DNA of 64,000 nucleotides from Eledone cirrhosa (taxonomy: Eukaryota). This document shows, piece after piece, positions 14,369 through 52,564 of this stretch (position 1 is its first letter; each line of letters opens with the position of its first letter). Position numbers and translations under genes: made by a program. A model generated the notes under the pieces. It saw only the letters and a list, made by a program, of their open reading frames with translations, was not told the origin of the DNA and made no database searches. Location: assembly GCA_964016885.1 (NCBI GenBank), contig OZ024745.1, positions 34,472,001 through 34,536,000 of the forward strand, written 5' to 3'.

Positions 14369-15117
14369 ACCAAATTTAAGTTCTTGTTTGTATGCACAGG
14401 GAACAGCAGAAATCTATTATTTTTTAATAGTCAGATCGATCGAAGCATCACTGCCCACGAAATACTGATAGTGTAGTGGAGGCACTTTATTTAATTTCCC
14501 CTGTGAGATTAAAAGTGTATGTTTATTTAAAAGGGTATAGGGCTATAACCTGGAATTGTTGGAGTTGAAGGTGCAATGCATCACAGGTTCATCATCCGAT
14601 TCGACTAAAATGACACTCGACGCACACTGTGAGGAATTTTCCCGTTAGTTCTATCAATAAAAATCCTAAAAATGCAAACTCTATGGAGGTCTTAATAACC
14701 TTCTTATGAAGGTAGCTATAGTTAGTATTAAAAGGTATGTATGTTTATATATTTATAGCTTTTGTTTTGATAGCAGGAGAAATAAAACATAATAGATGGG
14801 AGAGAAGGATGTATGTTTTATTATAGTTGGGAAGTTATACCAGTGATTCGACAGTCCGGAGGTTCATATCTTCTCAGCAATATTATATGTTAAACCAGAT
14901 CTGCTCTATAGTTTGGTATCGTTGCAATACGTTTCTTTTTTTCTTATTCTTTACTTTTCTTATTCGAATTTGATAAAGCGTTTTATACAAAACAGCAGAG
15001 ACTTCCTTCTCTTATTTTTTCACTTTCCTTCTACTTCCTTTAAACTGTCGCCTTTTGACTATTTTCCCCTTTGCACCGTTACCTCATCTTTACCAACACA
15101 CAGAAACGCACACAAGC

Positions 15118-16188
15118 ATGGGTACAAGAATGGGCCCGAACTATGCCAACCTTTTTGTTGGCCATGTTGAGGCCCAAATCTTTGCCTAGTACACCGGCCC
15201 CACGCCCGAACTGTACGGTCGTTACATTGACGACTGTATCGGAGCCACGACCCTCACCCGAGAACAGCTCGACTCCTTTCTCTCCTTCTTCTGCTCCTTC
15301 CCCATCACCTACCACCCCTCCATCTTACCCCTCCACCGCACCATCCGCCGCCTCTTCCGACGCCTTCAGTCCGACCCCTCCACCTCCCACATCTTCCCAA
15401 CCCCACCACTACCCTCGTTCAAACGCGCACGCAACCTCCGCACCCTCCTCGTCCACAGCTCCCTACTCCCCAACCCACACCCCCCCCCGGTTCCTTTCCC
15501 TGTTCTAGGCCCCGCTGCAACACCTGTCCCCACATCACCAACACCACCACCTTCCAGGGTCCCAGCGGCCACTCTCTCTCTGTCCGGCATGCCTTCCGCT
15601 GCACCTCCTCCAACCTAGTCTACGGACTTCGTCGGACAGACGGGACGTCGCCTGGCGGACAGATTCACTGAGCACCTCCGGGATATTCGTCTCGGTGGTA
15701 GTTCCTCCATCGCCCGCCACTTTGGTGCCCCTGGACATTCCGCACGCCATCTTACAGTCTGTGGCCTACTCCAATGCCACGGAACACCCGCCAATCTCCT
15801 CAGAGTCGAACAAAGAACCATCTTCATCTTACAGACCCACACTCCCCCCGGCCTGAACTCCCCACCCTTATTCCTTTAGCCTTCGACCGCCCCCTCCCCC
15901 ACACATATCCCCCACTAACACCACTAACGCACCCCTCCTTTTCACCGCCCACCCCACAACTAACAATACTAACACCTCCACTCCACCCCTCATCCGACCA
16001 CCCTTCCCCAACTAACCTACTAACATCCCTCCCTTCTTCTCCCCCCCCCCTTTGAACTCTCTTCCCAAACACTTCTCACCTGAGGAAGGGCTTATGCCCG
16101 AAACGTCGTTCCCCACCACTCTCCAGAGCGTGAAATTAATAAACATTCGTTGTACTGCCTCTCTGTTTTGTTCCTGTTCAAATTTTCC

Positions 16189-16190
<2 letters not shown>
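15118..16190 (+). mobile_element. Internally deleted Penelope-like element (Neptune-type RT + GIY-YIG) with 3' pLTR
   Basis: Hand translation: MGTRMGPNYANLFVGHVE...YGRYIDDCIG (RT); ITYHP...FKRARNLRTLLVHS; PCSRPRCNTCPHI...FRCTSSNLVY (Zn linker); TGRRLADRFTEHLRDI...IARHF...EQRTIFILQTHTPPGLN (GIY-YIG). Contains a stop and deletions. C-rich strand, ends at (TA)n. Confidence 0.9.
16076..16112 (+). ncRNA. Minimal hammerhead ribozyme in PLE pLTR
   Basis: CTGAGGA-AGGGC-TTAT-GCCC-GAAA-CG-TC, sense to the upstream PLE ORF. Confidence 0.75.
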
Positions 16191-19398: not shown

Positions 19399-21206
19399 CT
19401 GCAATGCACAACAGCAACATCTGCTCAAGGGTCAAGGTGAACGCCTACCTCTCGGAGTCGTTCCATATCACGCGATCCATCCGACAGGGATGCCCTCTCT
19501 CCTCCCTTCTGTAGGCTCGAGCCACTACTGCGGATTTGGAGCTATTGCAGAGCATCCCTTTGGAACCGGGACTGCGAAAAGCGGCGTCAGCCTACGCCGA
19601 TGACGTGACACTGATGGTGTGGAGCACCTCGCAAATCGGGGAGATCGGCACCTTACTGGAGGAACACGAAAGGTTCACAGGAGCGAAGCTGAACCGGGAC
19701 AAATCTGTCGGTTTGCAACTTGGAACGTGGAGTGGCAAACCGATGCCTTCCGATGACGTCGTCGGACGCTGGACGGAAGGACCGGTAAAGCTGCTCGGGG
19801 TCTGGTTTGGTCCTGACCTCCAGGTGGAGAAAACTGGAACGAGGTGACGGCCAAGGACTTTGCGCTCTCCCAGAAGTGGGCCGAGTGCAAACTATCCTTG
19901 AAAGGTCGAGCGGAGGTGGCGAACACTTTTATAGCGTCCGTCATCTACTACCGCTTGACCGTTGTGCCTTGTCCAGCTAAAACGCTCACCAAAATGGAGC
20001 GCGCGCTCTTCCAATCCCTTTGGAAGAAACGGGCTCCTTTGGTGAGAAGATCCATCTGCTGCCAACACCCTTCAGACGGAGGGCAGGGGTTGCTGTGGCT
20101 GACGATGCGCAAACACGCGCTCAGGCTGCGGCACCTCCACGTATTCCTCACCAGACAACCGGTGTGGGCCCCGTTCGTGAGGTGAGCCTTCCCACGACTC
20201 GTCTCACTGACCGAGCTGCAGACCAGGGTCAAGCAAAGACCGAGGAAAATGGGCGACTGGCATATCGAATGTGCTGAGGCGCTCACAGTCCTCTGGCAAA
20301 CGGGCCCGGCGATCAGTGGAGACTTCACTTCGACATTCTATAGAGGGTTGGTCCGCAGCAAGTGCGATGACACACTCGGAGAAACTCTAGGCGTAGAGGA
20401 GGACGATCTGGCCAGTCTGTTCGATAAGACCTTTCGCCCGGGACCAATGGACAACTTCCAAAAGTCCCTGGCCTGGCAGTGCTACCGAGGAGCTCTACCA
20501 GTTCGAGACAAGCTCTACAGACACAGGCGCCCGGGTAGGGACCCTTCGAAAAAGATATGTCCGAGATGCATGCGCGACGAGAAAACCGTTGCATACGCAT
20601 TTGTACACTGCCCGGGCGTTACCGACCTGTGGCGCTATGTAGAACGACTATTATCGCGTCTGGGACCAATCCAGTTGACCACCGAGTCCATTGTCATGAT
20701 CAAACTGCCACCCTCCTTCAAAAACGAGGGAGAGTCAGTTTTCCTATGTGTTATGGCTATGGTGAAAGAGGTTATATGGTGGACGAGGTTAAAAGGGCTG
20801 AGGTCAGACACCTTTCTCTCCGGCGAGCAACTGATTCGTTTTTTCAAATATCATTTTGGAAGAAGAATCAGGATGGAGAGAGAGGTGCTGTACCCCAGCA
20901 AGTTTTATAAAAGGTGGGTGAATGTGGCAAAGATGGCCCGAGTGGTTTGGCCTTCTCTCTATATAAGCCTGTAGGTTGAGGAAAAAGAGGAAGAGAGGAA
21001 GGGAGTACTCACTCTTGGTGCTCCTAGAGATGAGGGTTGTACATTTTTTCGGGATGTGTACAACCCCTGTGTAACACCTCCCCCTATTGGGGATTTCAAT
21101 TGTTATTTGTTATTGTATTAATAGTTTTATTTTCATATACCTGTATGTAAACTCCCCATTTGTATTTGTCCCCTTCTTTTGTGCCCTTGTGGCTAATAAA
21201 GAAATG
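19399..21206 (+). mobile_element. 5'-truncated Tx1/L1-clade LINE (RT C-half + CCHC zinc finger, frameshifted)
   Basis: RSIRQGCPLSPLL, SAYADDVT, KLLGVWFG, LSLKGRAEVANTFIAS, CPRC...H.FVHCP-type finger. 17-bp TSD TATCTATCGGT(T/G)GATTG at 19382-19398 and 21207-21223. Confidence 0.92.
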
Positions 21207-35643: not shown

Positions 35644-35867
35644 CATATACATACATATATATATACATACATGGATATACATACATATTTATACATACAT
35701 GCACACATACATATACATACACACGCATATGCATACATACATATATTTGTTTACATCCAATCTGTTCGCTATAGACTCCTAATCCAAAAGGAATCTGCGG
35801 GTAAGGACACTTTTTTCTCTCCATAGGGGTATTTTAACCAATTTCCTATGCTAATCTTTAATGTAAT

Positions 35868-36101
35868 ATAATTGTTTCTACATTTGGCACAAGGCCAGCA
35901 ATTACCCAGTACATTACTAGTATTTTATTTTATCGACCCCGTAAGGATGAAAGACAAAGTAAACCTCGGCGGGTTAATGTAATATAATTGTTTCTACTTT
36001 AGGCACAAGGCCAGCAATTACCCAGTGCGTTACTGGTACTTTATTTTATCGACCCCGTAAGGATGAAAGGCAAAGTCAACCTCGGTCGGATTTGAACTCA
36101 G
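35868..36101 (-). mobile_element. Two tandem 3' halves of the main SINE
   Basis: Units 35868-35973 and 35984-36101. TTAATGTAATATAAT is repeated three times at the junctions. Confidence 0.85.
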
Positions 36102-36724
36102 TTAATGTAATATAATGTCGCTACATTATATTTGTCATTTCTACATTTTGTAAAAAGGAATTTTGATGGCCCAGCACTTCGATATTTTAATGGAATATTG
36201 TTTATATCGACGATATTATGTATAGCTATCTAATTCAGACGAAATCCCTCGTTAGAAGTCTCCTAGCATAATGGTTAGAGCCCTCAGTCGCCATTTGAGA
36301 AACACAGAGTTCGATTTTTAGTAGCGGCAGTTCACTAGGTTTTCACCTCCAGCGTGGGTGCGCAGCAAACTTCTTAAACATACATCTATGCCTGTATAAA
36401 TGTTATAAACGTATCTGGAAAGAATAACTTATTGACACAATATATGTGATTATGGTGACAACTTGTATACTTAAAAATGGACTACACATAGTCGGGTTGT
36501 TTGTATCTATATACATGTAAGTGCATATATTATGTAAAACTATATTTTGTTTTAGATTATATACGAGCATGCATGTCTGAGGGGTTAAGAAGTGTGCTTC
36601 GCACGTTTCTCTATTAAGGACGGCAGAACCGCACCCTTTTCGTGTATTTTCTACTATACCCTCCCGTTGACAATATTTTTGAAGTTATCATCATCATTAT
36701 CATCATTTAATATGCATATGTATA

Positions 36725-36771
<47 letters not shown>

Positions 36772-36800
36772 CATGCATACATATATATATGTATATGCCA

Positions 36801-36869
<69 letters not shown>

Positions 36870-36876
36870 AATATAT

Positions 36877-38370
36877 GGCAACCGCTCTTTCAAACCAGTT
36901 CCTGTACACAGCTAAGTATTCTATAAGTCTCTAGCTGTGTCATTCTCGATAAAAGCACTGGATATGTAGTCCTGAAGATTTCTAACAAGAATGAAACGCG
37001 TAGATTACTTCCCTTGCTTTTATCGAGAATCTAATTGTAATACGTGACGTATTCTATTCTATAGCGATTAGGTCTTCAAAATGTTTATTATGAACATACA
37101 GAATATTTTCGAATATTCTATGTCTATATTCACATATATATCGCTATTTCAGAGCATTTATTCCAATTTCTAATTTCTGCCGGACCGGCAACCGCTCTTT
37201 CAAACCAGTTCCTGTACACAGCTAAGTATTCTATAAGTCTCTAGCTGTGTCATTCTCGATAAAAGCACTGGATATGTAGTCCTGAAGATTTCTAACAAGA
37301 ATGAAACGCGTAGATTACTTCCCTTGCTTTTATCGAGAATCTAATTGTAATACGTGACGTATTCTATTCTATAGCGATTAGGTCTTCAAAATGTTTATTA
37401 TGAACATACAGAATATTTTCGAATATTCTATGTCTATATTCACATATATATCGCTATTTCAGAGCATTTATTCCAATTTCTAATTTCTGCCGGACCGGCA
37501 ACCGCTCTTTCAAACCAGTTCCTGTACACAGCTAAGTATTCTATAAGTCTCTAGCTGTGTCATTCTCGATAAAAGCACTGGATATGTAGTCCTGAAGATT
37601 TCTAACAAGAATGAAACGCGTAGATTACTTCCCTTGCTTTTATCGAGAATCTAATTGTAATACGTGACGTATTCTATTCTATAGCGATTAGGTCTTCAAA
37701 ATGTTTATTATGAACATACAGAATATTTTCGAATATTCTATGTCTATATTCACATACATATCGCTATTTCAGAGCATTTATTCCAATTTCTAATTTCTGC
37801 CGGACCGGCAACCGCTCTTTCAAACCAGTTCCTGTACACAGCTAAGTATTCTATAAGTCTCTAGCTGTGTCATTCTCGATAAAAGCACTGGATATGTAGT
37901 CCTGAAGATTTCTAACAAGAATGAAACGCGTAGATTACTTCCCTTGCTTTTATCGAGAATCTAATTGTAATACGTGACGTATTCTATTCTATAGCGATTA
38001 GGTCTTCAAAATGTTTATTATGAACATACAGAATATTTTCGAATATTCTATGTCTATATTCACATATATATCGCTATTTCAGAGCATTTATTCCAATTTC
38101 TAATTTCTGCCGGACCGGCAACCGCTCTTTCAAACCAGTTCCTGTACACAGCTAAGTATTCTATAAGTCTCTAGCTGTGTCATTCTCGATAAAAGCACTG
38201 GATATGTAGTCCTGAAGATTTCTAACAAGAATGAAACGCGTAGATTACTTCCCTTGCTTTTATCGAGAATCTAATTGTAATACGTGACGTATTCTATTCT
38301 ATAGCGATTAGGTCTTCAAAATGTTTATTATGAACATACAGAATATTTTCGAATATTCTATGTCTATATT

Positions 38371-38380
<10 letters not shown>
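36877..38380 (+). mobile_element. Non-LTR retrozyme-like tandem array: 4.85 x 310 bp, each unit with a type I hammerhead ribozyme
   Basis: Units start at 36877, 37187, 37497, 37807 and 38117, identical except one visible substitution near 37757. Each has GTAGTC-CTGAAGA-TTTCTAACAAGAAT-GAAA-CGCG-TA-GATTAC. No ORF. Embedded in (TA)n. Confidence 0.9.
36966..37008 (+). ncRNA. Type I minimal hammerhead ribozyme (copy 1 of 5; others at +310, +620, +930, +1240)
   Basis: Stem I GTAGTC/GATTAC, extended by ATTCTCGATAAAAGCA/TGCTTTTATCGAGAAT. Core CUGAAGA and GAAA; stem II TTCT/AGAA; palindromic stem III ACGCGT. Predicted cleavage after GUA at 37002. Confidence 0.88.
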
Positions 38381-38429
<49 letters not shown>

Positions 38430-38455
38430 CATGCATACATGTATATATGTATATG

Positions 38456-38495
<40 letters not shown>

Positions 38496-38538
38496 CATAT
38501 ACATATATACATGTATGCATGTATTATATATATATATA

Positions 38539-38736
38539 AAGGCGGTGGATTGGCAGTATCAGTAGAGGGTCGGACGCCATGCTTTGAAGCATAGAGTTAC
38601 CTCCCTGTATGATCTGAGTTCAAATCCCGCCGAGGTTAACTTTGCCTTTCATCCTTCCGGGGTCGATAAAATAAAGTACCAGTAATGCACTAATGCACTG
38701 GGTAATTGCTGGCCTTGTGCCAAAAGTAGAAACAAT

Positions 38737-39763: not shown

Positions 39764-40340
39764 ATGGGGGCTGCCAACTCGTTTTCGAGTACGGCCACTA
39801 CTTTATATCCATGTAGGAGAACCCCTACCGATGCGCTGAACGAGTGTGACTTTTTATTCCAGCCAGCGACTTGAAAACTCTGGTACAAACAGTACACCTG
39901 TGACAACTATTGACACATACTGCTGGGCCCATGGTACCATGTGACGACAAGTGCAGAGAGATCTCCAGATATAAAGCAATACCTGTGCCGTGAAGCTTTT
40001 ATAGTGAGCAAAGGCACTGCACAAAGCCAGTCCCTCTCTCTTAACCAAGATGATATTTACCAAAAAGAAGAACAAGTCAACATCATTGGATACCATCAGG
40101 GTTGCAGGTTTTATATCAGAGTTTTCCTTCTCCTAGAATTCTGCCTTGACAAAGGCTAAGGGGTCAGCTCTCCCGGTGATTTTGGATGGCCATTGACTCT
40201 TAAGAGCTCCTTTGCCCTTTGACAGGTTTTTTTTTTAGTCCAGCAGGATGTCCAAAGTCACCCTCCTCACCAAGAAACCTTGGTGGGGTTGCCAGTTTAG
40301 TCGCCAACGACCCGACCATGGGACAGGTTGTACTGTGATA
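39764..40340 (-). mobile_element. ~575-bp non-autonomous interspersed repeat, probably RTE-derived (second copy 49131-49706)
   Basis: Highly similar end to end to the reverse complement of 49131-49706. Contains TTAGCCTTTGTCAAGGCAGAATTCTAGGAGAAGGAAAACTCTG, resembling an RTE 5'UTR/Ceph-domain motif. (TACA)n flanks. Confidence 0.75.
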
Positions 40341-40440
40341 CATACATACATACATACATACATACATACATACATACATACATACATACATACATACATA
40401 CATACATACATACATACATACATACATACATACATACATA

Positions 40441-41061
40441 CAAAAGCTACAGCAATGTGGAAGATATCCATGTACATATTATGAAAGAGTACTGGTGGAA
40501 TGTTCCAGTAAAAACCCCAATAAAATGCAGGCATAACAGACCAGATATTATGGTATGGAACAGGGAGAAGAAAGCATGCGCAGTAGTGGAAATTAGCTGC
40601 CCAGCAGATGCCAATATAATATCAAAGATTAACGAAAAGGAGAATATTTATGCAGAACTGATGAGAAATATGCAGATACTCAACCCTGATTACACCTTCA
40701 GATTTATGCCTGTGATTATTGGGGCACTGGGGTATGTTAGTAACTGCCTCAATACAAATTTTGAGAAGCTAGGCTTCACAGGAACAGAAAGCACACAACT
40801 AGTTATGAAATTATAAGTACAATCCATTAATGGAACAGTAAAAATATGTAAACCATTCCAAAAATGTTGCAGCTCAAAACATCCACATCCACAACTCATA
40901 ACATACACATCCACACATACAATAACATCCATATCTACACATGCAGACATAATCTACCTAGTTGATGTTGTGTAAATTCCATTGAGAGAGTCTTGTGTCT
41001 ATGTTAGAAACCGACTCTCTCTTTATTGGGAGATAATTTGTGAAATTATAAAACCAGAAGA

Positions 41062-41063
<2 letters not shown>
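40441..41063 (+). mobile_element. 5'-truncated R4/Dong-like RLE LINE (endonuclease end + 3'UTR)
   Basis: EYWWNVPVKTPIKCRHNRPDIMVWNREKKACAVVEISCP (PD-(D/E)xK-type RLE). Starts directly after (TACA)n and ends AAACCAGAAGAA-CATACAT. Confidence 0.9.
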
Positions 41064-41116
<53 letters not shown>

Positions 41117-41163
41117 CATATATATATGTATATATATATTATATATATATATATACATATATG

Positions 41164-41261
<98 letters not shown>

Positions 41262-41273
41262 TGTGTATGCATG

Positions 41274-43625
41274 TATGTTCTTCTGGTTTTATAATTTCAC
41301 AAAGTTTTACCAATAGAGAGAGAGTCGGTTTCTAACATAGACACAAGACTCTCTCATTGGAATTTACACAACATCAACTAGGTAGATATGTATGTCTGCA
41401 TGCATGCATGTGTAGATATGGATGTTTTTGTATGTGTGGATGTGTATGTTTTGAGTTGTATGTGTGCATGTGTATATGCTTTGAATCTGTACATGTGTAT
41501 ATGCAGTTAATAGATGCAACATTTTTGAAATGTTTTACATATTTTTACTGTTCCATTAATGGATTGTACTTGTAATTTCCTAACTAGTTGTGTTCTTTCT
41601 GTTCCTGTGAAGCCTAGCTTCTCAAGATTTGTATTGAGGCAGTTACTAACATATCCCAGTGCCCCAATAATCACAGGCATAAATCTGAAGGTGTAATCAG
41701 GGTTGAGTATCTGCAGATTTCTCATCAGTTCTGCATAAATATTCTCCTTTTCACTAATCTTTGATATTATATTGGCATCTGCTGGGCAGCTAATTTCCAC
41801 GACTGTGCATGTTTTCTTCTCCCTGTCCCATATAATATCTGGTCTGTTATGCCTGCATTTTATTGGGATTTTTACTGGAATATTCCACCAGTACTCTTTC
41901 ATATTATGTACATGGATGTCTTCCACATTGTTGTAGCTTTTAATGTGTTTATTATCGGGGCTATCTTTTTTACGAAATGCATTGCACAGTGTTTTGACCA
42001 CTACATCATGCCTCATAGGTAGATAGTACCGCGATGACATCTTTGGGAAGCTGCTGATGACATGGGTGATATCCTCGATGTTAGTTTTGCAGAGTCTGCA
42101 CTTGTTATCACATCTAGGTGTTTTGCCTGCATCTCTATCTCTTTTGTGAATCAGGTATTTCGTGCTAATCTCCTGTGCTTGGATTGCAAAAGCGTATCCT
42201 TCAAAGTGGGAGCCAATATAGCGGTTGTTGGTCCAAGATAGACTACTTTTGTTATCTATATTACTCTCACTCTAGAGCTTCCTGGCAACATATCCATGCA
42301 TGATTTTTTGCTGATAGGCATGCAGTTTTTCATCAATGGATTCACTGCGATACTGCTGAGCGACATCCTTGGGTGTGAGTTTTTGATTATCACACAGGGA
42401 ATATCTCTCAAGGATATCTTCCCAACTCTCATGATCTTATCTGTTTCATGCAGATAGACTTGCTCGAGAAGCGGGCTCCTACGCTTCAAGGTTCGTAGAT
42501 GTTGAGTATTTCAAACGTTGGTGTTAGAACAGGCACAGCAATCACATTGTGGCCCACTGTTTTGTTTTGCGCAGAGAGTTCCGATGACCAGATCTTTCTT
42601 AATCGGGTGTAGTATTCCTTGGTTATGCGTTCTTTATTACAGATTCCATTATAGGATATGTTCTCATCTATCCCCAGGTATCTGTAGCAGTCCTCATCAG
42701 ATATCGGTGAAACAGTTAGACCATTGATGACAATGTTGCTAGATTGGGTTGTTGTTTTTCCCCGCTTTACAGTCATGTATGATCATTTATCGTGGCCAAA
42801 CTCCATTCCTATATCCTTTGAGAACGTTGTAACCAGGTCAAGATTTTTCTTCATCCCATCCATGCTCTTGGCATAGAGTTTCAGATCGTGCACAAAGAGT
42901 TATGGGTTAGGTTCGTATTTCTGTCCTCCTGTGAGCCAATGATGTATCCCTCACATTTCTTGAGCAGAAAGGACAAGGGGTTTAATGACAAGATGAACAA
43001 TATCACAGAGAGACTGTCCCCCTGAAATATACCCCTGCAATATTTTATTTTATCAGTGAAAATATAGTCCTCCCTCTCTGTCTTTAACCTTAGGATAGTA
43101 GCCCAAGAAGAAGACAGCCTCCCTATGGCTCTGACAATGATGTCTGGGACTTTAGCAAGTTGGAGGGCCTCTATCATCCAAGAGTGGGGAACAGAATCGA
43201 AAGCTTTCTTGTAGTCCAGCTAGACTGTAGTCATATTCCTCCTATGTTGTCGCACCTCCGACATCGCAGTTTTGTTGATTAGGAGTTGTTCAGCACATCC
43301 CCAAACCCTTTTCTTTCCAGCTGCTTGTTCATCTGTGATGATGTTATTATTTTCACAGTGATCTTGGAGGAATAGGTTGAGGCAGGCTGTATACATCTTA
43401 TACATCAGGTTCTGGCATGCAATGGGTCGGTAGTTTTTTGCCAAGTGGGTGTCTTTGTTCTTGGGGACCAGTAACGTTTGTGCTAATGTCAACCATTCTG
43501 GTATAAGTGTATCTCCCTTAAGAACTTGTTGGTAGAGGTCAGTAAGGTACCTCCGATAGAATATTAGTTGTTTGTACCAGCAGCCGACAATCATGTCTCT
43601 TCCTGGTGTTTTCTTATCTTGGAGT
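41274..43625 (-). mobile_element. R4/Dong-like non-LTR retrotransposon (RT + Zn knuckle + RLE), 5'-truncated, frameshifted
   Basis: KNYRPIACQNLMYK, DYKKAFDSVPHSW, RGIFQGDSLS, YRYLGIDE, CRLCKTNIEDITHVISS, RHD, NRPDII...VVEISCP. (TATG) context at both ends. Confidence 0.92.
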
Positions 43626-44049
43626 TTTCCTATGTATGATTGTATGTATGTATAAGAAATTCCGATGTCAAGGTGAGATTCTGCTACTTTCTGTGCGTGT
43701 GTTTCGCAATATACCCATCAATATGCAGATTATTTGTACTCTATACTTGATATACTTGTTAGTATACATTTTGCTGCTAATAGAAATAAAGGTAATTCTA
43801 AATATGTGCCATATTCGAGAGTTGAACTCTGGGTGCTGAGTATATAAGCCAGAAATCTATGCGGACACATTTTCCTCTCTCTTTCTCTTTTATTTTGCAT
43901 TCCTCCTTTTCCACACTACTATAATACACCAACCCCATTAGAAATTTTAACAGCCAAAGATAATTCTGTTGCATGCTTTATGTAGTATCGAAATCCGTTT
44001 TCCTCTGAGTTCACAAGACATTCACACGTTATCAGTCTTCTTCCACTTT

Positions 44050-49726: not shown

Positions 49727-49890
49727 AAGAAGGAGGTGTGGTAAGGAACCAGATTACTCAATACTTAGGGTAGTAGAATGGGTAACAGGAAAATGTTTAA
49801 CCCCAACGGCAGAGTTCAAGCCGTTTCGAAGGCTATTTCTGGAATAGCCGTCGAAAGGGCTTGAGCTCTGCTGCCGGGATTAAACATTTA
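49727..49890. mobile_element. PLE pLTR-like remnant with fold-back centred on HHR stem II (family of 11428-11570)
   Basis: AATGTTTAACCCC...CGTTTCGAAGGCTATT-TCTGG-AATAGCCGTCGAAAGGGC...TTAAACATT. Confidence 0.7.
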
Positions 49891-50131
49891 TATATATATA
49901 TATATATATAGTAATAATAGTAATAATAATAAAATTGAAGACTAAAATCCAAAGAGGGCTCGATAAGGAAAATATATATCAAATATATAAGAACCGTAGA
50001 GCAAATATTTATTAAAATAACAGATTAGAGTTTAAGCAAAGAATCGCTGCTTTCACCCTTAACGGGATCTTCTGAAACTAACAAAGTCAATCTGTAAACG
50101 CAGAACTGGATATTTCAAAAAACGTTTCAAG

Positions 50132-51406
50132 GTGGTTAAGAATTTTGAAGTTGATGTCATCCTTAATGCCCGAAAGTCGGTGATTAATTTCGATGACTCT
50201 ATTTGGATTAAAAAATCCAATAGTACCCCATTCGACGTGAGTATGGGCGCCAGTGACTCTGCGGAGGTTACTGATCTTATTGGCCTTTTCCTTCTTTTCT
50301 CTATCAAGGACGAATTCCCCAACGCGGGCGGTGGTTTGTACCGTGACGATGGTCTTTTGACCATGACTAAGTGCGGACCTCGTGCTTGCGACAGGTTCAG
50401 AAAAGAACTCACAGCCTTCTTTAAAGGCTTCAACCTCTCTATACAGGTTGAGGCCAATCTCTCGGTCGTTAATTACCTCGACGTTACCCTCAATTTATTG
50501 AATGGGTTGTATTACCCGTATAGAAAGCCGAATGATACGCTTAATTACATAAGTAAGCATTCCAACCATCCTGCCAGCATAACCAAGAACCTGGTAAGAA
50601 ACGTTTCGTTGAGGCTTTCCCGTCTTTCCACCAACGAGCGCATTTTCAACGACCATTCCACTTATTACAATGAAGCTCTTGCTCGAAGTGTATTTGTCGA
50701 TAAGGTAGCATATACAGAGTACGAAAATAGACCTAGAAGAAATAGATCCCGTCGCATTTGTTGGATTAACCCACCATATAATATGGAGGTGGCCACACCA
50801 TTAGCTAAGATCTTTCTTTCCCTTATTACGAAGCATTTTCCCCCTACACATAAATATAGTAAAATTTTTAATAGAAATACTATTAAAATGTCTTACTCTA
50901 CGACTCCTAACCTTGCACATAACATCAGAGCTTCAAATTTAGCTAAACTACCTAGCCGTAGGAACACGTGCAACCCTGTAGTTAGTACTAACTGTAATTG
51001 TAGGAATCGGGCTGATTGCCCCCTATCCGGGAAATGCCTCTCTAGTAACATTGTCTACAAATGTAAGGTTGTAACACCTACGTCCCGTAGGGCCTACATA
51101 GGGTTAACCGCCAATGGTTTCAAGCAGCGTCTTTACATGTATACGCATTCTTTTCGTTACTCTCTAAGAAGGAATATGACGTCACTTTCAGCTTATATCT
51201 GGAGTCTAAAAGACAACCACACCCAATATAAGTTACACTGGGAGATCCTAGCTAGGGCTAGATCGTATAACGGAAATAAAAGACCATGTGACCTCTGCGC
51301 CGCTGAGGCCCTGGAAATAATCTACGCCACAGACCACATCTTAAACAAAAAATCTGAGGCAATTTCGGCTTGTAAACATAAATTGCACAAAACTTTCCTG
51401 TATTAG
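50132..51406 (+). CDS. PLE reverse transcriptase (C-terminal half) + Cys-rich linker + GIY-YIG endonuclease, N-terminally truncated
   Basis: 424-aa open frame: MGASDSAEVTDLIG, GLYRDDGL, VNYLDVTLNL, YRKPND...SNHP, CNCRNRADCPLSGKC, IVY...YIGLT...FKQR, CDLC...CKH. Confidence 0.93.
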   Translation: MVKNFEVDVILNARKSVINFDDSIWIKKSNSTPFDVSMGASDSAEVTDLIGLFLLFSIKDEFPNAGGGLYRDDGLLTMTKCGPRACDRFRKELTAFFKGFNLSIQVEANLSVVNYLDVTLNLLNGLYYPYRKPNDTLNYISKHSNHPASITKNLVRNVSLRLSRLSTNERIFNDHSTYYNEALARSVFVDKVAYTEYENRPRRNRSRRICWINPPYNMEVATPLAKIFLSLITKHFPPTHKYSKIFNRNTIKMSYSTTPNLAHNIRASNLAKLPSRRNTCNPVVSTNCNCRNRADCPLSGKCLSSNIVYKCKVVTPTSRRAYIGLTANGFKQRLYMYTHSFRYSLRRNMTSLSAYIWSLKDNHTQYKLHWEILARARSYNGNKRPCDLCAAEALEIIYATDHILNKKSEAISACKHKLHKTFLY

Positions 51407-52363
51407 AGCCCCACGTTATACCCTAACGGATAGCACGATCTATACGTGGATATTTTACGTCTTGATGTGGGAGCTAAGTATATGTTTTGTTTATTCCTTT
51501 ACTTATTTGCATAGGTAAGTATATATTACCCGTATGTTTTGTGAAGGTATGTATACCTTCTCGTACGTATATTTGACTGTTATGGCGTATAATTTTTACA
51601 TATTCTGGTATTTAGAGTTTGGCTATGTGTATACGGGAGTTTTGCGTCTGCGTGAGTATGCAGGTTCGTACGAAATGGTGGGTGTGTGTATATGTGTACT
51701 CCTTGTTTTAGTTGACTTACGTCTCCGAACATTCGTGTATTTATATGTAGGTATGCGTGTGCGCTTGTTATATACGTATTTATTTACTTATATACGTTTA
51801 TATAATTATTTATTTATTTGTACACAAGCATACACACACACACACATATTTATATGTGCGTGGTTTTGTATACCTATGGTAAGGTTTTGCGTATGCTTGT
51901 GTATGTACGTATCTGTTTGCGTGTATGTATTTATTTGTTTTTATTACTTCTGTATTGTATTTATTTACTTTGTTCTTAACTCTTAGCGGAGATTCATTTG
52001 GTCTCCTAGTTAGAATTTTAGTCTACGACTTCTGCTATACCATTTACGTGGTTTTGTCTTTGCGTGCTATTGTTCTCCACGATCCACATATGACTTATTA
52101 TCTTCGTTTTTTCGTTCATTGCCAGAGAACGTCTCTATGCACCACCTAAGAGAACATTAGTCTACGACCTCTTTTATACCATAAACGTGGTTCTGTCTTT
52201 GAGCGCAATTGTTTTTCACCGCTCCTATTAATGACGTATTATTCGTTTTTCCCGTTCTTTGCCAGCGAACGTTACCACGAACCAAAGTATCGTCCTCCTG
52301 TCTTCCTCCGGTTACAACGTTTTTTGAAATATCCAATTCTGCGTTTACAGATTGACTTTGTTA

Positions 52364-52412
52364 GTTTTAGAAGATCCCGTTAAGGGTGAAAGCAGCGATT
52401 CTTTGCTTAAAC
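52364..52412 (+). ncRNA. Core-mutated hammerhead in PLE 3' pLTR
   Basis: AGTTT-TAGAAGA-TCCC-GTTA-AGGGT-GAAA-GCA...TGC-TT-AAACT. Core reads TAGAAGA here, CAGAAGA in the inverted 5' copy and canonical CTGAAGA at 29566-29572. Confidence 0.7.
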
Positions 52413-52429
52413 TTTAATCTGTTATTTTA

Positions 52430-52564
<135 letters not shown>

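Follow-up and report, generated by a model that had tools for sequence, protein, structure and literature searches.

A tandem array of 310-nt units in Eledone cirrhosa

The window, the whole 64,000-nt stretch of Eledone cirrhosa DNA that was analysed, carries a tandem array at 36877-38381 (Table 1). With a period of 310 and 99% matches, the array comprises 4.85 units (four complete ones plus 265 bases of the next), which start at 36877, 37187, 37497, 37807 and 38117; the match stops at 38381. The sole mismatch among the units is a T>C at 37757. The longest stop-to-stop frame is 59 aa, and the unit has a GC content of 34.5%, within the limits used for retrozymes (~170-400 nt, GC under 45-50%). 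This confirms the sequence-only reading, which had described about 4.85 near-identical, ORF-less units of 310 bp. The array lies between two (AT)n tracts, and the pair of 35-bp anchors flanking it is a candidate long, imperfect target-site duplication. A very abundant SINE-like repeat (38543-38735) adjoins the array, and a 116-bp tandem pair at 35858-36100 is related to that repeat.

Table 1. Features of the window array, with the family loci that carry the unit-129 insertion
Feature	Position or loci	Strand	Remarks
One-armed retrozyme array of 4.85 x 310-bp units	36877..38381	+	truncated 5' end at unit position 1; 3' end falls on site A
Type I hammerhead of unit 1	36966..37008	+	predicted cut after 37002; recurs every 310 bp
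16-bp helix, 5' arm	36942..36957	+	closes the ribozyme domain; compensatory changes vs sister family F2
16-bp helix, 3' arm	37015..37030	+	from folding
3' module (unit 185-298)	37061..37174	+	common to older sister families; contains end sites A and B
Unit position 216 = G (family mostly A)	37092, 37402, 37712, 38022, 38332	+	template RNA possibly A-to-I edited here
Lone single-unit difference, T>C	37757..37757	+	class enriched among family-wide single-unit changes
Site-A array end	38372..38381	+	AT run passing into target (AT)n
Left (AT)n target	36716..36876	.	35-bp anchor 36768-36802, repeated on the right with one mismatch
Right (AT)n target	38382..38538	.	second anchor copy 38426-38460 within a perfect 126-bp palindrome 38413-38538
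Unit-129 insertion	L206, L207, L221, L223, L225, L230, L232-L234, L240		insertion of C or T

Each unit carries a putative hammerhead ribozyme

Every unit contains a type I hammerhead motif with a 6-bp stem I, CUGAAGA, a 4-bp stem II, GAAA, a 2-bp stem III and GUA, which should be a usable hammerhead cleavage triplet. The core and cut positions claimed earlier were recovered: CTGAAGA starts at 36972+310n and GAAACGCGTA ends at 37002, 37312, 37622, 37932 and 38242, after which (unit position 126) cleavage is predicted. The hammerhead region folded with z=-4.95, and 0/200 shuffles were as good. With z=-4.0 for the circular monomer and z=-5.1 for its reverse complement, the strand cannot be read from the fold alone. 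The perfect 16-bp helix that had been described does close the ribozyme domain; it is not a direct extension of stem I, as had been claimed, because an 8/6-nt internal loop lies between it and the 6-bp stem I. At the base of stem II lies a U.U mismatch, and the pairing probability of this stem is only ~0.17; stem III is formed by the palindrome ACGCGU. In a search of the kind suggested earlier, no Rfam hammerhead model matched at the gathering threshold or at E<=10.

Of 16,319 genomic units, 16,202 (99.3%) had kept every core letter, with ~0.06% change per site, near the single-unit mutation level; the free hammerhead position N7 is polymorphic among genomic units. Stems I and II and the 16-bp helix show compensatory pair changes relative to a 314-nt sister family that is 68% identical over the unit. 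Pairs were counted in 11 and 25 sequences, per family by anchor, since a 3-nt gap in stem III had escaped the aligner. Judged from these alignments, the hammerhead of the 310-nt family is under constraint. Metazoan type I hammerheads that act as dimers typically have a short palindromic helix III (PMC4209133), and the present ribozyme probably needs a dimer, via its palindromic stem III. The axolotl hammerhead HHR_Amex2 likewise has a 2-bp helix III and a U.U that forms the base of helix II (PMC7229834). For Xenopus retrozyme dimers, the text of a 2026 preprint reports 8/9 without cleavage (bioRxiv 10.64898/2026.07.22.740005).

The family is abundant and young

Exact matches to a 31-mer of the core number 933 genome-wide, and those to its reversed control 0. 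The array is thus neither a chance product nor an artefact of a single locus, and the unit is not present at this locus only, the outcome that the sequence-only reading had named as contrary to its view. We counted 16,319 units (~16,300) in the 3.0-Gb genome, in ~1,400-2,800 loci when extrapolated from 17 loci. The family is young, in support of the earlier claim of a very recent event. One very long locus (L230 and L241, G000:C1:183.18-183.19 Mb) holds at least 16 plus ~20 units, all with a private A>G at unit 244.

The 314-nt sister family is older and has retained the core with GUC. Its 2,633 candidates include loci with the same two end sites as the 310-nt family (L138:1491-1854, L139-L167, L069:2431-2881), and its arms were short, at most 2.3 units in the 29 other loci sampled. 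A family of ~317 nt (L176-L204), older than the 314-nt family, shares the 3' module; its stem III is long and palindromic, and its core appears to be of the U3-A8 type. No attached ORF was found in either family.

Insertions end at two fixed 3' sites

We mapped 95 loci, a non-random sample made up of the window, the 37 best BLAST matches, 35 early pattern matches on contig C1 and 22 loci picked for their variants. Among 161 resolved 3' ends, 82 fell at site A (unit 250-268, modes 256/265), 75 at site B (unit 284-300, mode 291), ~26-35 nt away, and 4 elsewhere; AT-rich DNA lay beyond 150 of the 161. The 172 5' ends were uniform across the unit (p=0.61), and none fell within 3 nt of the cut site, compared to 3.9 expected. 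The earlier expectation of dispersed arrays with permuted start positions held for the scattered 5' ends; the 3' ends are fixed at two sites. An apparent 5' hotspot at unit 217 was rejected as an artefact of the window array's own 216G.

With arms under 60 nt dropped, 73 of the 95 loci were simple head-to-head pairs, 2 were complex and 20, including the window array, were single-armed. The 73 pairs comprised 61 with one arm ending at A and the other at B, one B+B pair (L226), one with an interrupted arm and 10 cut by a fetched edge or gap. Among the 62 resolved two-arm loci there was thus no A+A pair (p about 1e-17). The central junctions overlapped by at least 2 nt in 21/33 cases compared to 18% expected, indicating microhomology; at L122:2225-2240, L137:1556-1569 and L132:3814-3816 the arms were joined through the 16-bp helix itself. 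Informative target-site duplications of 12-52 bp were found at 7/56 loci and were unreadable in (AT)n or absent at the others; in metazoan non-LTR retrozymes such duplications, where present, exceed 4 bp. The arms are concatemers of up to ~19-20 units, and their lengths deviated from a clean exponential (p=0.005 and 0.08).

We infer that sites A and B are reverse-transcription start sites. Insertions of Penelope-like elements (PLEs) are described as having a head-to-head copy, a 30-40-bp tail on one end and a bias for (TA)n (PMC8557442, PMC3846280). The inverted truncated copy, the 30-40-bp tail on one end and the (AT)n targets of the 310-nt family match this signature and argue for mobilisation by PLEs, a proposal of the sequence-only reading that the end positions, layout and AT-rich targets support. 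The window array is very probably a real, young, PLE-mobilised retrozyme.

Each array carries a single haplotype

In the 83 loci with enough units, 30 haplotypes were found, and a single haplotype ran through all units and both arms of a locus. Variants were present in single units in 113 cases and at intermediate frequency in 12, and no variant among the 83 loci was confined to and fixed in one arm. On the element strand, single-unit changes comprised 24 T>C compared to 5 A>G (p=0.002), a bias seen in both contig orientations and counted without the changes that had been searched for; C>T and G>A were even. This strand bias suggests reverse-transcriptase error with each unit copied separately, which is the simplest reading, other strand-specific processes being possible. 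The possibility that the T>C changes came from an edited antisense template was rejected, as the disfavoured neighbour was not depleted (7/24 compared to 27/111). Together, whole-array clonality and strand-biased single-unit changes lend indirect support to the rolling-circle reverse transcription proposed earlier.

Some arrays depart from this pattern. Private variants recurred in non-adjacent units of one arm at L039, L051, L052, L055, L136 and L236, and L032 and L243 were mosaic. At L208 a variant was common to the first unit of both arms and found nowhere else, and at L053 a variant occurred in offset units. These loci suggest that multimeric templates, inter-arm conversion or later DNA duplication also act. 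In a crude test against stepwise duplication, 9/46 were shared compared to 31% expected (p=0.06).

Array-wide private variants numbered ~14-16 in the 83 loci by hand count; 0.15 per unit is expected from a draw of one monomer. The haplotype tables held no array-wide change at unit 126/127, and one single-unit change was seen at unit 127 (L243). A one-base insertion at unit 129, two bases past the predicted cut, was array-wide and arose 3 times; it is possibly a scar of ligation or of a jump.

A recurrent A>G change at unit position 216

A G at unit 216 was found in 57 units at 9 loci, a genomic frequency of 0.35%. At eight of these (the window array, L062 and L221-L226, of which L226 is small and decayed) it was present in all covering units, each locus on its own background, and at L227 in 1/9 units. 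Parsimony, using one best tree from 12 random-addition starts, gave 6 origins for 216G (7 haplotypes tabulated) and 3 for the next site. Drawing genomic units would yield 0.11-0.22 origins rather than 6. The mirror change 210C, whose DNA context on the opposite strand is identical, occurred in 4 single units and in no fixed array. For the 75/145 pair, 98 of the first 100 matches listed were 75G in whole arrays and 2 were single 145C units; 75G had only 2 origins and is largely a lineage. Among array-wide sites that were not searched for, a hand count gave 8 A>G and 4 T>C, opposite to the single-unit spectrum (p=0.004); selection could add to this A>G excess, as A>G keeps a G.U pair, and confounds the array-wide counts.

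The all-or-none presence and many origins of 216G suggest that the change arises in RNA before copying and is then cloned into all units. This pattern points to a bottleneck of one monomer, most simply a circle. Position 216 is a paired A with a 5' U; octopus ADAR is very active, and the enzyme disfavours a 5' G (PMC5625713). On balance, A>G at unit 216 is probably A-to-I RNA editing written back into DNA.

Comparison with known retrozymes and PLEs

By its sequence features the 310-nt family is a metazoan non-LTR retrozyme, a class already described. This supports the earlier class assignment: a type I hammerhead in every unit, a short low-GC tandem unit, no coding capacity and dispersed arrays were all found. 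The non-LTR retrozymes of coral, mussel and axolotl (PMC7229834) are also short, low-GC, tandem, ORF-less and dispersed units with one type I hammerhead each. Their cleavage and circles were demonstrated, whereas the 310-nt family is known here from DNA. For these retrozymes Cervera and de la Pena 2020 proposed circle-templated reverse transcription by PLEs (PMC7229834). The text consulted describes no two-arm layout, fixed end sites, clonality or editing marks and does not include the 310-nt sequence family; 'inverted' and 'cephalopod' have 0 occurrences in the main text of that paper. Vertebrate retrozymes (Li, Clavereau and Pollet 2026, bioRxiv 10.64898/2026.07.22.740005) are likewise non-autonomous, with ~300-bp units, and co-occur with PLEs. 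Their link to PLEs is pLTR homology, whereas that of the 310-nt family is insertion geometry. The text of this preprint ascribes retrozyme arrays to local amplification and has 0 occurrences of 'tail' and 'mollus'. As presented in these sources and in PMC7761336, PLE mobilisation of retrozymes was proposed without end mapping. A literature search (subscription journals and Repbase lay outside it) returned no account of the 310-nt family, of a cephalopod retrozyme or of two-arm retrozyme insertions, nor of strict A+B pairing in retrozymes or edits fixed in arrays. The PLE footprint of two end sites, the clonality of arrays and the candidate editing at 216G go beyond the cited papers.

Endonuclease-bearing PLEs share with the 310-nt family the head-to-head 5'-truncated copy, the tail on one end and the AT-rich/(TA)n targets (PMC8557442, PMC3846280). 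PLEs also share two internal start sites (PMC11167929) and a dimer-acting hammerhead with a short palindromic helix III (PMC4209133). In contrast to PLEs, the unit has no RT-endonuclease ORF and the arms are long concatemers; the pairing of a tailed with a tail-less arm is near-strict (61/62), whereas the PLE papers call the tail optional in the text available (PMC8557442, PMC3846280). Being ORF-less, the unit is not an autonomous PLE, which has an RT and GIY-YIG ORF between pLTRs. PLEs are abundant in this genome, with 10,598 GIY-YIG candidates, and RT and GIY-YIG frames are present; PLE protein matches near the sampled loci were separate fragments. Using blastn and a unit profile, no pLTR homology to the unit was found in 50 GIY-YIG loci (of the 10,598 candidates) or in the window, the matches being to older retrozyme families only. 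Retrozyme relatives, followed as a route to an autonomous partner, led to the 314- and 317-nt families, neither of which has an ORF.

A relaxed hammerhead pattern gave 7 matches in the partner search. The terminal-repeat hammerhead of a PLE family at L097, L101, L102, L104 and L112 also has a palindromic stem III and a basal U.U in stem II; the family has no sequence match to the 310-nt unit. Within the window, a C-rich 3' fragment at 15040-16190 resembles another PLE, has a GUC hammerhead-like motif near 16080-16110 and ends in (AT)n; it was not matched by the unit profile. A 5'-truncated element at 49887-52437 has a 447-aa RT-like frame (50063-51406) with a weak PLE-protein match and no Pfam match, an inverted end copy at ~50005-50126 and AT flanks. 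Broken non-LTR retrotransposon frames lie at 40301-43717, and another, with a weak zf-RVT match, at 20186-20974.

Discussion

The tandem units, conserved fold, dispersal, two 3' sites, A+B pairing, (AT)n targets and single haplotype per locus suggest that the arrays were written by a PLE enzyme that copied one monomer RNA, probably a circle, for several rounds; we give this mechanism as a whole a probability of roughly 0.7. An existing array would be transcribed by read-through. The hammerhead, probably acting as a dimer held by its palindromic stem III, would cleave the transcript immediately 3' of unit position 126. The monomer would be ligated to a 310-nt circle, the stems of which may occasionally be A-to-I edited. 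The PLE GIY-YIG endonuclease would nick both strands of an (AT)n site, and a single RNA would serve both DNA ends, one priming at its site A and the other at its site B. Synthesis with strand displacement would then go around the circle until a random stop, and the two cDNA ends would be joined by microhomology. At the window locus only the site-A arm would have been captured, its 5' end joined to the (AT)n target. In the anole PLE studied by Frangieh et al., two internal start sites were found and both DNA strands were cut and extended in vitro (PMC11167929).

Against this mechanism speak the same anole PLE, whose ribozyme was dispensable in vitro with uncut RNA as the main substrate (PMC11167929), the uncleaved Xenopus dimers, the weak stem II of the monomer, the lack of pLTR homology in the 50 GIY-YIG loci and the window, and the arrays with recurring, mosaic or offset variants. 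A 340-nt contig of the unit from three runs was set aside as evidence for circles, as tandem DNA yields the same. The PLE enzyme may instead copy long uncut linear (or multimeric circular) read-through transcripts, with the ribozyme mostly a passenger, which we consider unlikely but deserving of attention. Seamless junctions and random 5' ends are also expected from such templates, axolotl retrozymes produce multimeric RNAs (PMC7229834), and the position-specific variants common to both arms in L208 and offset in L053 fit them. However, new variants should then appear in one unit first, whereas 216G is all-or-none at 8/9 loci on different backgrounds; the number of array-wide private variants fits the draw of one monomer, and the core is conserved across sister families. 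A nicked rather than closed template, in which the cut, unligated monomer is held by stem I and the 16-bp helix and copied by template jumping over the nick, would give the same clonality with its cut ends kept together, and could account for the three origins of the inserted base at unit 129. The absence of 5' ends near the cut and of an array-wide scar at it, with only the one change at 127, makes such a template very improbable.

Insertions of one or two units of PLE type might also have grown later by unequal crossing-over or slippage, as the 2026 preprint would have it (bioRxiv 10.64898/2026.07.22.740005). Later growth explains clonality trivially and agrees with the private variants recurring within one arm at six loci, and the crude stepwise-duplication test (p=0.06) does not speak clearly against it. 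DNA-level duplication does not predict strand-biased single-unit changes, arm-specific fixed variants are absent, both arms usually have several units, and the arms of the older 314-nt family are short despite more time; we therefore find later growth improbable. Long AT tracts with near-identical units make assembly difficult, and none of the contigs assembled from three runs spanned the array. That the array is an assembly artefact, or a PLE terminal repeat simply duplicated in place, is nevertheless scarcely credible given the locus-specific haplotypes, the fixed ends, the target duplications at other loci and the number of units genome-wide; the unit also contains no flanking DNA, and no PLE ORF is attached to it.

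Copying of one monomer RNA by a PLE enzyme can be taken one step further. From both ends of a cut (AT)n site, a PLE enzyme dimer may prime at two fixed points of one hammerhead-made circle and travel round it, so that each array would be the fossil of one RNA molecule, with A-to-I edits heritable in every unit and reverse-transcriptase errors confined to single units. We put this forward tentatively, at slightly less than even odds. In the cited texts, animal retrozyme circles as the template of PLE reverse transcription are proposed, not demonstrated, and the 2026 preprint favours local DNA amplification. With units that number ~16,000 and are nearly identical, two mapped start sites and arrays that are clonal, the family makes both questions testable with a 310-nt substrate. 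It also supplies many natural insertions in which to study the still unexplained tail and inverted layout of PLEs. Should the 216 A>G change be due to editing, it would represent an RNA edit fixed in the germ line via a mobile RNA. If each array is indeed the fossil of one RNA, the family would provide genomic proof that animal retrozyme circles are a transposition template and would explain the PLE tail and inverted layout, and RNA editing would be a driver of element evolution.
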